A DNA stretch of 64,000 bases from Methanothermococcus sp. Ax23 (GCF_049075655.1 NZ_CP157522.1:384001-448000); one strand, 5' to 3'. Shown: positions 985-56,368, counted from the first letter of the stretch. Program-made: numbers and translations. The notes: a model not told the origin generated them from the letters alone.

Positions 985-2319
985 ATGGATAAGGATAATA
1001 ATAAAAATATGGATTTAATGGACGAAACTATAAAAATATCATCAGATTTAATTAAAATAAATTCAGTTAATCCGGCATTTGGTGGATTGGGGGAAATGGA
1101 AAAGGCAGAATACGTATTAACTAAATTGAATGAGTATATACAAAAGTATAATATAAAAAATTATTCAATAAAGCAATACAATACAAAGGATGATAAGGAC
1201 ATAATACGACCAAATATTGTGGCAAAGTTCGATTTTGGAAAAGATAGAACACTCCATATAATTTCTCATCTTGATACTGTTCCAGAGGGAGATTTAAATC
1301 TTTGGAACACGAATCCTTATGAGCCAGTAATTAAGGATGGGATGATATATGGAAGAGGAAGCGAAGACAACCATAAAGCAATAGTTTCATCCCTGTTATT
1401 GTTAAAAATGATTTTTGAAGATGAAAATAAAGATAAAATTCCAAAATATAATTTGTGCCTAATATTTGTATCAGATGAAGAATGCGGCAGTAATTATGGT
1501 ATTCAACATATATTAAAACTTGACAAAAACCCAAAGGGCTTTTGTAAGTCAGCGAATCCGAAGGATTCGCTTCGATATGAAAAAGAGATTTTTGATGAAA
1601 ATGATTTAATAATAATCCCAGATTTTGGAACACCTGATGGAAATTATATAGAAATAGCAGAAAAAAATATACTATGGATTAAATTTAAAATTAAAGGAAA
1701 ACAATGTCATGGAAGCACACCAAACGATGGAATAAATACCGATGTTCTAATGTTCAATTTTGCAAATAACCTTTACAATATGCTCTATACTAAATACGAC
1801 AAAAAGGATGAGTTATTTTCTCCGTCATACTCAACCTTTGAGCCTACCATGATTTTTAACAATGTTGAAAATGTGAATACCATTCCGGGATATGTGGAAT
1901 TATGCTTTGATTGTAGAATACTCCCAGATTATGATGTCGATGAGGTTTTAAAAGATATTGATGAATTTATTGGTGATTTTAAAAATAATATTGATAAATA
2001 TTTAAAATACTACGATAAAGAGGAAGAGAAAAACATATCAATTGAATATGAAATCCTACAAAAGGAGCTCTCACAAAAAACACCTGAAAACTCTGAAATA
2101 GTTGTCGAGCTCGGGGATGCCATAAAAAAGGTATTAAACAAAGAACCGATTTTATGCGGTATGGGAGGAGGCACAGTTGGAGCATTTTTAAGGGCAAAAA
2201 ACTATGATACGGTTGTTTGGGGCATTGGTGAAGAAACTGCCCATCAACCAAATGAACATATAAAACTCGAAGATTTAATAAAGATGGCTAAAACATACTA
2301 CGAAATTTTAAAAGAATGA
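985..2319 (+). CDS. M20 family metallohydrolase (DapE/ArgE-like) carrying a 19-aa in-frame insertion
   Basis: HLDTVP, YGRGSED, DEE, GKQCHGS and AHQPNE motifs; GAGG RBS before ATG 985 (track ORF starts at 973). Confidence 0.85.
   Translation: MDKDNNKNMDLMDETIKISSDLIKINSVNPAFGGLGEMEKAEYVLTKLNEYIQKYNIKNYSIKQYNTKDDKDIIRPNIVAKFDFGKDRTLHIISHLDTVPEGDLNLWNTNPYEPVIKDGMIYGRGSEDNHKAIVSSLLLLKMIFEDENKDKIPKYNLCLIFVSDEECGSNYGIQHILKLDKNPKGFCKSANPKDSLRYEKEIFDENDLIIIPDFGTPDGNYIEIAEKNILWIKFKIKGKQCHGSTPNDGINTDVLMFNFANNLYNMLYTKYDKKDELFSPSYSTFEPTMIFNNVENVNTIPGYVELCFDCRILPDYDVDEVLKDIDEFIGDFKNNIDKYLKYYDKEEEKNISIEYEILQKELSQKTPENSEIVVELGDAIKKVLNKEPILCGMGGGTVGAFLRAKNYDTVVWGIGEETAHQPNEHIKLEDLIKMAKTYYEILKE
1518..1578. 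repeat. 61-bp two-hairpin repeat, copy 1 (in-frame inside the M20 hydrolase)
   Basis: ACTTGACAAAAAC-N9-TTTTGTAAGTCAGCGAATCCGAAGGATTCGCTTCGATAT; near-identical copy at 9576-9636. Confidence 0.9.
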
Positions 2320-2373
2320 AATAATAAATAATAAAAGTAAATAAAATTAATTAATTAAACCTACGGTGATTAA

Positions 2374-2970
2374 ATGAAAATCTACTTTGCAACGGGAAAT
2401 CCAAACAAAATTAAAGAGGCTAATATTATTTTAAAGGATTTAAAGGATATATCAGTTGAGCAGATAAAATGTCCTTATCCTGAAATTCAAGGAACATTGG
2501 AAGAGGTTTCAGAATTTGGAGCAAAATATGTTTATGAAAAAATGAATTATGAAAATCATGGATTTTCAAATCCAGTGGGAAAACCAATAATTGTTGAAGA
2601 TAGTGGGTTTTTTGTGGAATCACTCAATGGATTTCCGGGGACATATTCAAAGTATGTTCAAGAAACATTAAGAAATGAAGGTATCTTAAAACTTTTGGAA
2701 GATAAGGAAGGCGACGACAGAAGAGCATATTTTAAAACAGTAATAGGATACTGTGATGAAAAGGGCGTAAAATTGTTTAAAGGAATTGTAAAAGGGATGG
2801 TTTCCTATGAAATAAGAAGCAAAGGATATGGTTTTGCATACGACAGTATTTTTATTCCAGACGGGGAAGATAGAACTTTCGCAGAGATGAAAACGGAAGA
2901 AAAAAGCGAAATATCCCATAGAAAAAAAGCGTTTGAAGAGTTTAAAAAGTTTTTATGCAATATGCAATAG
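2374..2970 (+). CDS. rdgB: dITP/XTP pyrophosphatase (RdgB/HAM1)
   Basis: [26 protein letters not shown] and SHRKKA motifs. Confidence 0.93.
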
Positions 2971-3003
2971 TTTATAAATTATATACTATAATTTTTTGAT
3001 ACT

Positions 3004-3363
3004 ATGAAAACTTTTGAAATATATCCAATAGGAAGTATTAAACAGTTAGAGAATAGAACAGTTTTAAACATTTTTAAAGAATATCGTGATGGATTGGATG
3101 GATTAAAAGAAGGTATGGGGATTTTATTACTCCTATGGTTTGATAGAAGCGATACTCCAGAAAAAAGAAAGATATTGAAAGTCCATCCAAGTGGAAATCC
3201 TAACAATCCAATTAGGGGTGTGTTCTCCACAAGAGCTCCCGTTAGACCAAATCCAATAGCAGCATATACTGTCAAGATTTTAAAAATAGATGAAAATAAT
3301 ATATTTATCGAAAAAATCGATGCCTATGAGGATACGCCAATAATTGACATTAAAATAGCTTGA
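3004..3363 (+). CDS. tsaA: TsaA/TrmO-family tRNA methyltransferase (UPF0066)
   Basis: RGVFSTRAPVRPNPI and IDAYEDTPIIDIK motifs. Confidence 0.85.
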   Translation: MKTFEIYPIGSIKQLENRTVLNIFKEYRDGLDGLKEGMGILLLLWFDRSDTPEKRKILKVHPSGNPNNPIRGVFSTRAPVRPNPIAAYTVKILKIDENNIFIEKIDAYEDTPIIDIKIA

Positions 3364-54308: not shown

Positions 54309-54394
54309 AATATTAATAAATAATAATTATAGAATTTTTATTTTCATTACTTTATTTTTATATAATCCCTTTTAAATGATTATTTGGTGAAATT

Positions 54395-54865
54395 ATGACT
54401 ATAAAAGTTGGTATAGCAGACACCACTTTTGCAAGGGTAGATATGGCATCTGCTGCAATAAAGAAATTAAATGAAATGACTTCCAAAATAAAAATAATTA
54501 GATACACGGTTCCGGGAATGAAAGACCTTCCAGTAGCATGTAAAAAACTCATTGAAGAAGAGGGATGCGAAATAACTATGGCACTTGGAATGCCCGGGGG
54601 AAAAGATAAAGACAAAGTTTGTGCCCATGAAGCTTCCCAAGGGCTTATGATGGCACAGCTCATGACAAATAAACACATAATTGAAGTTTTTGTTCATGAA
54701 GATGAAGCTAAGGATGAGAAGGAGCTCGAATGGTTAGCAAAGAGAAGGGCAGAAGAACATGCTGAAAATGTTTATTATTTATTATTCAACCGGAAGTTCT
54801 TGGAGAAAAATGCTGGAAAAGGATTAAGGCAGGGTTTCGAAGATGTTGGAGCCGCAAGGGAATAA
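54395..54865 (+). CDS. ribC: Archaeal riboflavin synthase
   Basis: [38 protein letters not shown]. Confidence 0.93.
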
Positions 54866-54903
54866 CAACTAAATAATTAATAAAATACTCTGCAATTGAA
54901 TAG

Positions 54904-56368
54904 TGAAGTACCCCTTCCTTACGGAAGGGGCTTCCTGCATCATCCATCTCTTAACAGAGCATGTCAGACAGGCTCACCCCCGCCTTCCGCAGGTGCGTAG
55001 TGTATTTATAATCCAATTAGGTTCTGTCTGTCCAAAGCAAACTTTTTAATATTAACCGCCGCATTAACATCCCTATCATGCTCAGTATTGCAGACAGGAC
55101 ACTTCCAAACTCTATTCTTTAAGTCCAAATTACCATTATAATACCCACAAACAGAGCATATTTTACTGGAAGGTTCAAACCTACCTATTTTTATTATGGT
55201 CTTTCCAAACTTCTCAGCTTTATACATTAGTTTAGATACAAAAGAAGACCATGCTACATCAAGAATTGATTGGGCTAAATTGTGATTCTTAACCATTCCT
55301 TTAACATTCAAATCTTCCAACGCTATGGCTTGGTTTTCCGTGCAAATCAAAGATTTGCAGGACACAAAAATCTTCGATTTTTGCTGTCGCCAATTAATTT
55401 AAAAGAGAGTTTGTGTTGGAAGTCATTCCTTTGATTAGTAATTTTCTCATGTAATTTAGCAAGTTTTAACCTTGCTTTCTCTCGGTTTTTAGAACCTTTT
55501 TGTTTTCTTGAAAGTCTTTTTTGTAATACTTTTAACCTCTGCAAACTCTTTTTGAGATGCTTTGGATTATCTATTTTCTCACCGTTTGATAATATGCAAA
55601 AGTGAGTAATACCTAAATCGATACCTATTGTGGTTTCCTCATTGAATGGTTGTTTTTTAGGAATTGGTTTTCCATCCTCTACTATAATACTTATGAAGTA
55701 TTTACCTGTTGGAGTTTTTGAGATTGTTACTGTTCTCATTTCCCCTTCGAATTTCCTGTGGAGTTTAGCTTTAACCCATCCTATTTTGGGTAGAAATACT
55801 TTGTTATTCTCCCAGTCCAGTTTATAATGTTGGGGAATTTGGAAGGATTGTCTGGGATGTTTTTTGGATTTGAATCTTGGGAAGGATGATTTCCTTCTGA
55901 AAAAGTTGGTAAATGCCCTCTCCAAGTTCAGAGTTGCCCCCTGCAATGATTGGGAGTTTATTTCTTTTAACCATGGGAATTCTTTTTTTAGTGTTGTTAT
56001 GGTTTTGTTTAGTTGGAATCGTGATATTGCCTTGCCTGTTTGTTCGTAAGATTGGATTTTAAGATTTAATGCCCAATTATAGATGAATCTACATGCTCCA
56101 ATGTGTTTGTGGATTAGTGTTTTTTGTTCTTTGTTAGGGTGTAATCTGAACTTGTATGCTGTTAGCATTTTATCACGATGTATTATTTATGTTAAGTATT
56201 TTAGTTGCTGTATTATTTATAATTTTTGGTCAGCTCTCATCCCGCCCTTACGAACGGGGGATGTCTGAGCGGAGCGAAGACATTTTAAAATCACCAACTT
56301 TGTTGGTGAGTAATGGAGCTCTGCTCCATCTGAACCGCAGGTTTTTATAAACTTCTCGCCGACATTAG
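54904..56368 (-). mobile_element. Second IS200/IS605 (IS1341 group) tnpB-only element, disrupted; ends approximate, probable TTTAT target motif
   Basis: Right-end hairpin CCCCTTCC-GTAA-GGAAGGGG then TACTTCA(C); left-end remnant split by hairpin inserts; TTTAT at 56369-56373 (minus). Confidence 0.75.
55006..56168 (-). pseudogene. tnpB: TnpB frameshifted by a 50-bp double-hairpin insertion
   Basis: Removing 55338-55387 fuses both ORFs into 370 aa (..KLIG-ENQAIALEDL..) with GIDLG, EDL, HDRD and CSVC/CPVC intact. Confidence 0.9.

Follow-up and report, generated by a model that had tools for sequence, protein, structure and literature searches.

The elements described here have counterparts in a number of short palindromic repeat families. 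Those of Methanocaldococcus jannaschii, the MJREs treated by Suyama, Lathe and Bork in FEBS Lett in 2005, reportedly average ~100 bp and are old and diverged. In the part of PMC2229807 that deals with them, MJRE1-3 are palindromic repetitive elements with coding potential. Tagged repetitive extragenic palindromes (REPs) and bacterial interspersed mosaic elements (BIMEs) carry a short GTAG or CGTC tag beside a hairpin, and CGTC-type repeats lack a dedicated transposase, according to the sections on such repeats in Di Nocera et al. 2013 (PMC3733652). Rickettsia palindromic elements (RPEs) are presented, in the relevant parts of PMC10969869 and PMC3733652, as palindromic selfish DNA of ~100-150 bp that is CGTC-tagged and lies in frame in housekeeping genes. 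We analysed a stretch of 64,000 nt from the archaeon Methanothermococcus sp. Ax23, hereafter the window (G000:C1:384001-448000; genome G000, 1.67 Mb, 32% G+C, 98.9% complete), which contains many short hairpin units that we call cassettes. By its protein matches in related genomes, G000 belongs with the hydrogenotrophic methanogens of a single order. An earlier note on this DNA had read the cassettes as a family of insertions into genes, insertion sequence (IS) ends and one another, possibly moved by an HUH/Y1 nuclease in trans. Genome comparison confirms that the cassette insertion family is real and was recently active in this lineage. We think it probable that the cassettes belong to a REP-, RPE- and MJRE-like superfamily of miniature palindromic insertion elements that are non-autonomous and depend for movement on an enzyme acting in trans, from outside the element.

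The hairpins share one architecture, a perfect stem closed by C-NNN-G, and all nine loci cited in the earlier note contain the hairpins described there. We counted perfect stems of at least 7 bp with a 3-nt loop that are closed 5'C..G3', with the mirror closure G..C as a control. The genome holds 240 C-closed stems, against 24.6 expected from an order-3 Markov model and 14.2 from a 60-nt block shuffle (five simulations each), so that the predicted genome-wide excess over shuffled sequence is present. The excess is specific to C-NNN-G, because G..C-closed stems (22, against 27.2 and 14.6, respectively) are not enriched. The window itself has 13 such C-closed stems, where 200 block shuffles give 0.66 +/- 0.81 and never more than 3. 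The commonest loops among the 240 genomic stems are GAA/TTC (110), AAA/TTT (39) and ATA/TAT (31). [quoted passage not shown] The hairpins group into 104 clusters genome-wide. The stem count includes stem 28746-28762 and several other 7-bp genic stems that are conserved coding sequence, present also in the congener G012, and are not elements. Folded as single-stranded DNA, eight of nine loci have z-scores of −3.7 to −6.0, with 0-1 of 200 dinucleotide shuffles folding as well; the weak fold is that of a 36-nt piece of the HAM1 gene (z −1.4; 19 of 200 shuffles equal or better). The only Rfam match in the window at gathering thresholds is a tRNA.

The cassettes in genes occupy sites that are empty in relatives. 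The 57-nt unit in the M20 peptidase gene (Table 1), which folds with −15.2 kcal/mol (z −5.7), is absent from all 18 usable orthologues (11 further loci, read on the wrong strand, were left out), with an exact junction relative to the two congeners G003 and G012. G003 is the closest relative, and its M20 orthologue, which lacks the unit, has 91% protein identity. Five of five orthologues lack the 33-nt unit of the Ham1/ITPase gene, and both G003 and G012 lack the 42-nt unit of the methyltransferase gene. Clean empty sites in both congeners were thus found for all three genic inserts of the window (57, 33 and 42 nt), as the earlier note had foreseen for the two enzyme genes that it singled out, with inserts at 1519 and 2542.

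We extended this comparison to the whole chromosome of G012 by flank projection and realignment of the 104 clusters, 30 of which lacked colinear flanks. Thirteen clean junctions were obtained, 10 genic and 3 intergenic. The genic inserts are 48, 57, 37, 57, 33, 57, 57, 45, 57 and 30 nt long; nine of the ten are multiples of three and the exception, of 37 nt, lies in an IS-like ORF. Intergenic inserts at clean junctions measure 49, 49 and 83 nt and inserts in IS DNA 37, 50, 56 and 91 nt. Only copies with a length that is a multiple of three persist in genes, as under a filter of selection, and the contrast drawn earlier between in-frame inserts in enzymes and frameshifting ones in ISs is borne out, the frame of a tnpB gene being broken (see below). 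Host ORFs with genic inserts remain open and match Pfam families. F1 cassettes (one of the families defined below) are oriented as the gene in four of four G000 genes, and are read in the same frame in a transposase ORF of G012 and in a gene of G027. An unbiased whole-genome alignment of G000 and G012 gave a similar picture: eight of ten G000-specific genic insertions of 28-60 nt have a C-closed hairpin, whereas in the reverse direction such a hairpin occurs in 6 of 388 G012-specific insertions (mean G+C 15%).

The earlier note had seen no terminal inverted repeats and no clear target duplication, and the comparison agrees. At the 13 clean junctions and the IS-internal sites the redundancy is 1-2 nt at most (A, TT or AT), the two ends of a cassette are not inverted repeats, and target duplications of 3 nt or more are lacking. 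The left flanks of families F1-F3 differ and have in common only a last base, mostly A. Units have been copied to new, mostly A/T-rich sites in genes, intergenic DNA, IS and MITE ends and other cassettes.

Families F1-F4 were defined from the flanks and with nhmmer, except that F4 was recognised by eye and its search returned the seed alone. The matches number 15 for F1, 24 for F2 and 48 for F3, of which 29 lie within IS or MITE copies. From 5' to 3', a unit comprises a short tag of TTGA or TTAG type, an A-rich perfect hairpin whose 3-nt loop is closed C..G, a linker of 3-5 nt, a second, GC-richer module, which may be a hairpin, and CGA at the 3' end; single units are 33-57 nt long and nested ones longer. 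With 14 F1 copies aligned, pairing holds in 93% of cells and drops to 44-49% when the partners are slid by one column. Twelve of the 23 F1 pairs have changed on both sides, and the 24 compensated cells compare with 6.7 in shuffles, with none of 500 shuffles as high. The shared tags and linkers together with these paired changes mean that the stems vary with compensation, yet do so among recognisable copies. The idea that structure is conserved while sequence is free therefore stands as far as compensatory stem change goes, which is strong, and fails in that the elements form sequence families; the hairpins are copies and not convergent structures.

Loops are found in both orientations. Each oriented family holds purine-type and pyrimidine-type loops, and one and the same IS/MITE left-end hairpin has the loop ATA in 23 copies, with AAG in another 6 and TAT in 1. 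In G015 (L175) and G027 (L174), which belong to different families of the order, orthologous genes carry an F1 unit in the corresponding place close to the C-terminus; the unit is better conserved than the coding flanks, and both of its loops are inverted between the two genomes. Such inversion might arise by template switching within the hairpin. As a separate observation, the F2 cassette at 36842-36900 has a perfect 11-bp hairpin in G000 and a decayed orthologous copy in G012, which suggests that only the hairpin-rich genome actively keeps its stems perfect.

The claim that cassettes enter IS ends and one another was upheld in several elements. The genome carries a TnpB-only IS200/IS605-type family with 38 left ends, all 3' of TTAC, whose copies are near-identical and mosaic, and which includes 27 MITEs of 283-405 nt. 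The MITE in the window is wholly absent at the orthologous G012 site. A 37-nt cassette is nested in 30 of the 38 left ends and missing from eight, among them the IS at 47438-48824, where the left end near 48790-48824 lacks exactly these 37 nt; removing the insert at 31310 thus restores an IS end, as had been proposed. In the right part of the MITE a 50-nt F3 cassette is present in 18 of 27 copies and absent from nine, including the window copy. Left and right cassettes occur in all four combinations of presence and absence among the 27 MITEs (15, 3, 6 and 3). The F4 cassette beside a tRNA gene likewise contains a nested 38-nt cassette.

A second TnpB IS type in the window has one sister copy (C1:913342-914634, 93.6% identical), and its tnpB is split by a cassette at 55338-55387. 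Deleting 44, 47 or 50 nt there places the two tnpB ORFs in one open frame with a single stop at the gene end, and the restored frame runs into the native segment ...ALEDLNVKGM..., in agreement with the earlier prediction that tnpB could be mended in this way. A cassette may also travel with an IS: in G012, a 238-aa ORF with a weak DDE transposase match (C1:687872-688585, L066) and six other copies contain an in-frame F1 cassette, which is being spread as a passenger.

Hairpin load is lineage-specific. A covariance model of F1 matches 76 places in G013 (another genus), 21 in G000, 10 in G012, 9 in G010 and 1-2 in each of G003, G015, G027 and G028, and 23 further relatives have no match; F1 is thus present in a second family of the order, to which G027 and G028 belong. 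The density of C-closed stems is 144 per Mb in G000, compared with 31 in G012; over the first 400 kb of each, it is 145 per Mb in G013 and 32 in G020. Searches with the F1 pattern gave no match in viral contigs and none, then one, in genome contigs, from which near relatives may be excluded, so that this is not evidence of absence. Separately, positions 1-300 of a 14.7-kb contig titled Bacteroidales MAG (metagenome-assembled genome; L181) hold an array of at least seven cassettes of the same kind. This contig has 24-33% G+C over the 8 kb examined, with bioW and bioF adjacent, and either its binning is wrong or such elements are found beyond the order as well.

The cassettes agree with each of the systems introduced above in some respects and differ in others. 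Like the MJREs of the same archaeal order, as these have been reported, they form short palindromic families that are mostly extragenic with a few in-frame genic copies. They differ in their size of 33-57 nt and in that many are younger than the split from the relative with the 91%-identical M20 orthologue, a distinction that is drawn from descriptions and not from sequences. Tags, C-NNN-G closure, nesting and loop flips are cassette features that do not appear in the description of MJREs given in that part of PMC2229807. With REPs and BIMEs, in the account of PMC3733652 cited above, they share a short tag beside a family-variable stem, clusters, mosaics, genic copies and a role as targets for, or partners of, IS ends. 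They also resemble repeats mobilised by a REP-associated tyrosine transposase (RAYT) in being numerous short palindromic copies that are mainly extragenic and clustered. Their tags, 5' TTGA or TTAG and 3' CGA, are nevertheless not GTAG or CGTC; no RAYT gene (PF01797) was found in G000 or G013, where one flanked by repeats would be expected; and they have A/T-rich perfect stems with 3-nt loops, a unit of two different tandem hairpins and an archaeal host. The in-frame insertion of a palindrome that adds a peptide segment is common to cassettes and RPEs, and in the RPE sources cited, as here, the enzyme that moves them is not known. Genic cassettes differ from RPEs in length (33-57 nt, or 11-19 aa), tags, archaeal host and the lack of a sequence relationship to the RPEs described there.

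Two kinds of MITE were also considered. MITEs derived from IS200/IS605 elements are called PATE-type. The cassettes are like them in lacking inverted termini and target duplication, and unlike them in having no homology to the end hairpins of the resident IS and no fixed tetra- or pentanucleotide target. The 322-405-nt MITE of this genome, in contrast, is a true MITE of this type, with end-hairpin homology to the resident IS, a constant position after TTAC and subterminal hairpins. Classical MITEs mobilised by DDE transposases differ from the cassettes, which are without terminal inverted repeats and without a target duplication of fixed length. In structure, the cassettes share the C-GNA-G closure of a 3-nt loop with the very stable GCGNAGC single-stranded DNA mini-hairpin (PMC13037366, in its treatment of this motif), and GAA is the commonest cassette loop, but cassette loops are also AAA, ATA and complementary pyrimidine versions, and that source, in the part concerned, is physical chemistry and not mobile DNA. 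The literature searched on palindromic or MITE repeats of Methanococcales contains no account of these cassettes, although journals beyond those searched may differ.

Under the reading that we prefer, the moving form of a unit would be single-stranded hairpin DNA, acted on by an enzyme that the element does not encode and that is provided in trans, much as in the 'peel and paste' of REP or IS200/IS605 elements. The only named candidate for this enzyme is a Y1 TnpA, which co-occurrence does not support. After insertion, template switching within the hairpin would keep the arms complementary and flip the loops, and would thereby account for perfect stems, compensatory changes and both loop orientations in one family.

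Several points weigh against this reading. Recombination among copies can explain the four-combination MITE pattern as well as repeated gain or precise loss; it is possible because other markers in the MITE copies are mosaic too. Certain cassettes, common to G000 and G012 or to different families, are old, and not every copy signifies recent activity. The evidence for mobility is the comparison of genomes, in which no transposition event, excised circle or within-population polymorphism was observed. The Y1 transposase domain (PF01797) is not matched in G000, nor in G013, the genome richest in F1; in the search of G000 the controls gave matches in 6 of 14 genomes. IS110-type DEDD transposases (PF01548) were found in none of five genomes, G000 included; a search for reverse transcriptase (PF00078) gave none in G000 and one match, in G013 only. 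Viral_Rep (PF02407) gave no match in G000, but the control genomes were silent too. No candidate transposase was found by Pfam among the window ORFs or the 30 scanned of 160 G000-specific ORFs (those without a tblastn match in G012). Nor do cassette hairpins resemble those at the left and right ends of IS copies, resident or TnpA-bearing, which have 6-bp stems with 4-nt loops or are GC-rich; the TnpA-bearing copies have GC-rich 8-bp hairpins. Finally, no conserved target word precedes the cassettes in family alignments or at clean junctions; to our knowledge, every IS200/IS605 element has a conserved 5' target word.

The G000-specific ORFs that were scanned encode restriction-modification, McrBC, UvrD plus PD-(D/E)XK, TGT-like and PHP/AAA proteins and parts of a pT26-2-like integrated element. 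ORFs without a G012 match at G000:C1:282-304 kb, 799-815 kb and 1527-1542 kb are mostly defence genes (type IIG and type III restriction-modification, McrBC, UvrD plus PD-(D/E)XK, TGT-like and PHP/AAA OLD-like). The same regions contain an integrated element with T26-6p-type domains, and several hairpin clusters lie at their borders. The second contig (G000:C2, L173; 7.7 kb) has a large helicase-like ORF and no Rep or HUH family by Pfam. Its ORFs are open at both ends; were the contig circular, they would form a single helicase-like protein of ~1240 aa.

One alternative, unlikely as we consider it, is that the cassettes serve an IS200/IS605-type Y1 HUH transposase (TnpA or RAYT), acting in trans on single-stranded hairpins, as REP- or PATE-like substrates, the enzyme having since been lost or being carried by a plasmid or virus. 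This form of the earlier proposal survives only because the TnpB IS/MITE family of the same genome is also without its TnpA, which its 38 left ends 3' of TTAC would equally need. TnpA fragments are kept in the closest relative, G003, and in G010, the architecture of a cassette (tag and hairpin, no inverted termini, no duplication) is what would be expected of such substrates, and presence and absence within MITE copies is seamless. Besides the lack of PF01797 in G000 and G013, the missing target tetranucleotide and the different end hairpins, the distribution of the enzyme speaks against this alternative. Among 30 relatives PF01797 is intact in G015, G020 and G028 only, with fragments in G003, G010 and G025, and the three genomes with intact TnpA have 0-2 F1 matches. 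Hairpin load, whose correlation with TnpA- or RAYT-like genes the earlier note had proposed to check, does not follow Y1 TnpA: G020, with an intact TnpA, is hairpin-poor (32 per Mb in the 400 kb sampled), and G000 and G013, without one, have 144-145. Y1 TnpA as the mobiliser is not supported, since it does not co-occur with F1 counts or hairpin load, and neither is TnpB as a correlate, since its counts do not follow those of F1.

The proposed targeting of pre-existing single-stranded hairpins fared no better. Across 17 reconstructed empty sites, junctions are not significantly more often within or next to a small palindrome than random positions are (P = 0.58; a small sample and a crude score). 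The hairpin-adjacent cases are IS ends and one insertion into a hairpin loop, and hairpin-directed targeting is thus anecdotal.

It is also conceivable, if doubtful, that movement depends on a mechanism outside the known transposase classes. A structure-specific single-stranded DNA cut-and-ligate or copy-in activity, possibly that of a host or defence-island nuclease, would recognise a tag plus any perfect C-NNN-G hairpin and insert units of 30-60 nt seamlessly, with flip-flop inversion as a by-product.

We consider it quite improbable that no dedicated enzyme is involved and that a stalled nascent strand copies a distant cassette by template switching in replication or repair and returns via microhomology of 1-2 nt, a process that would also flip loops and perfect stems. 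The junction redundancy of only 1-2 nt (A, TT or AT), the flipped loops and perfect arms and the failure of the searches made to find a transposase would fit. Three unrelated genic F1 copies, however, are each exactly 57 nt long with identical ends, and the distribution is patchy and infection-like (e.g. 144 versus 31 per Mb within one genus). Moreover, such precise units would not be expected from ectopic switching over hundreds of kb with homology of 1-2 nt.

That the hairpins are not mobile but are functional structures selected in place (RNA 3'-end or stability elements, or protein-binding sites) is very improbable, because whole 33-57-nt units with identical ends occupy sites that are empty in relatives and the same sequences lie inside enzymes, transposase genes and IS ends, despite the preponderance of non-IS hairpins outside ORFs (93 of 135) and a mild excess of co-orientation with neighbouring genes (18 versus 11, in which tandem arrays are not independent). 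A function of cassettes after their insertion is possible.

Further loci of the window are intergenic or adjoin a tRNA gene (Table 1). The F1 cassette at 9576-9633 has no alignable G012 site because of rearrangement. The tRNA-adjacent composite at 42500-42738 is made up of a 12-bp hairpin (42660-42686), the F4 cassette with its nested cassette (~42590-42627), a hairpin at 42561-42579 and a degenerate repeat of the tRNA 3' end. Its ~190 nt of hairpins (window 42500-42813) are flanked by the tRNA 3' end on one side and, on the other, by the degenerate repeat of that end and of the T-rich stretch that follows it. This arrangement looks like an att-type duplication from site-specific integration. 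Similar hairpins adjoin tRNA ends at C1:251408 and C1:470606. Elsewhere in the window, a 1730-aa ORF on the minus strand (57030-62222) has no significant Pfam domain and only a sub-threshold CarboxypepD_reg match.

Table 1. Cassettes, empty sites and associated features, in window coordinates
Feature	Position	Strand	Context and support
F1 cassette, 57-58 nt, two hairpins	1518..1575	+	in frame in M20 peptidase gene 973-2319 (Pfam M20), adds 19 aa
33-nt insert, 8-bp hairpin 2550-2568	2547..2579	+	in frame in Ham1/ITPase gene 2374-2970, adds 11 aa
42-nt insert, 8-bp hairpin 3892-3910	~3881..3922	-	in frame in methyltransferase gene 3400-4056; z −5.3
Intergenic F1 cassette	9576..9633	+	downstream of hycI-like gene; nhmmer and covariance-model match; z −3.7
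MITE from TnpB-only IS200/IS605-type element, 322 nt	31274..31595	+	inserted 3' of TTAC; one of 27 MITE copies
37-nt two-hairpin cassette	31310..31346	+	nested at foot of MITE left-end hairpin; TT on either side; z −5.8
Empty site in right part of MITE	31556..31566	+	alignment of 27 MITE copies
F2 cassette, 11-bp hairpin 36847-36871 and second stem	36842..36900	+	upstream of NOG1-type GTPase gene; nhmmer; z −4.9
tRNA-adjacent composite	42500..42738	-	sequence; z −6.0; whole composite absent from G012
tRNA gene, 3' end repeated beyond composite	42739..42813	-	Rfam RF00005, 68.8 bits
TnpB-only IS copy, uninterrupted left end	47438..48824	-	Pfam OrfB_IS605 and Cas12f1-like_TNB; left-end sequence; repeat map
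Second TnpB IS type, tnpB split (ORFs 55347-56168 and 55006-55365)	54905..56371	-	Pfam
Empty site; sister IS has 56-nt F4-like cassette	54967..54968	.	pairwise alignment
~50-nt two-hairpin cassette, frameshifts tnpB	55338..55387	-	common to sister copy; z −4.0
91-nt composite, four stems	56261..56351	+	just 3' of IS left-end hairpin; absent from sister copy; z −4.7
10-bp GAA-loop hairpin	63626..63648	.	in multi-copy DDE-type IS (repeat 63394-64363)

Very short pieces of selfish DNA are remodelling proteins in real time: in the window, three adjacent housekeeping genes have gained 11-19 residues each, and these gains postdate the divergence from a relative with a 91%-identical M20 orthologue. 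For annotation, such inserts give spurious-looking alignment indels and can be mistaken for sequencing errors or terminators. Cassettes also decorate or break TnpB elements, including the region beside the end hairpins, which bears on the decay and diversification of RNA-guided nuclease elements. How palindromes of REP and RPE type move without a RAYT is an old open question. Because the units are tiny, the empty sites exact and the load ~fivefold different between sister genomes, the enzyme could be found by pull-down and by gene-presence association. If a mechanism outside the known transposase classes proved to be at work, the cassettes would represent a novel kind of mobile DNA that is active in Methanococcales today, and would help to account for transposase-less palindromic repeats elsewhere, such as RPEs and CGTC repeats.

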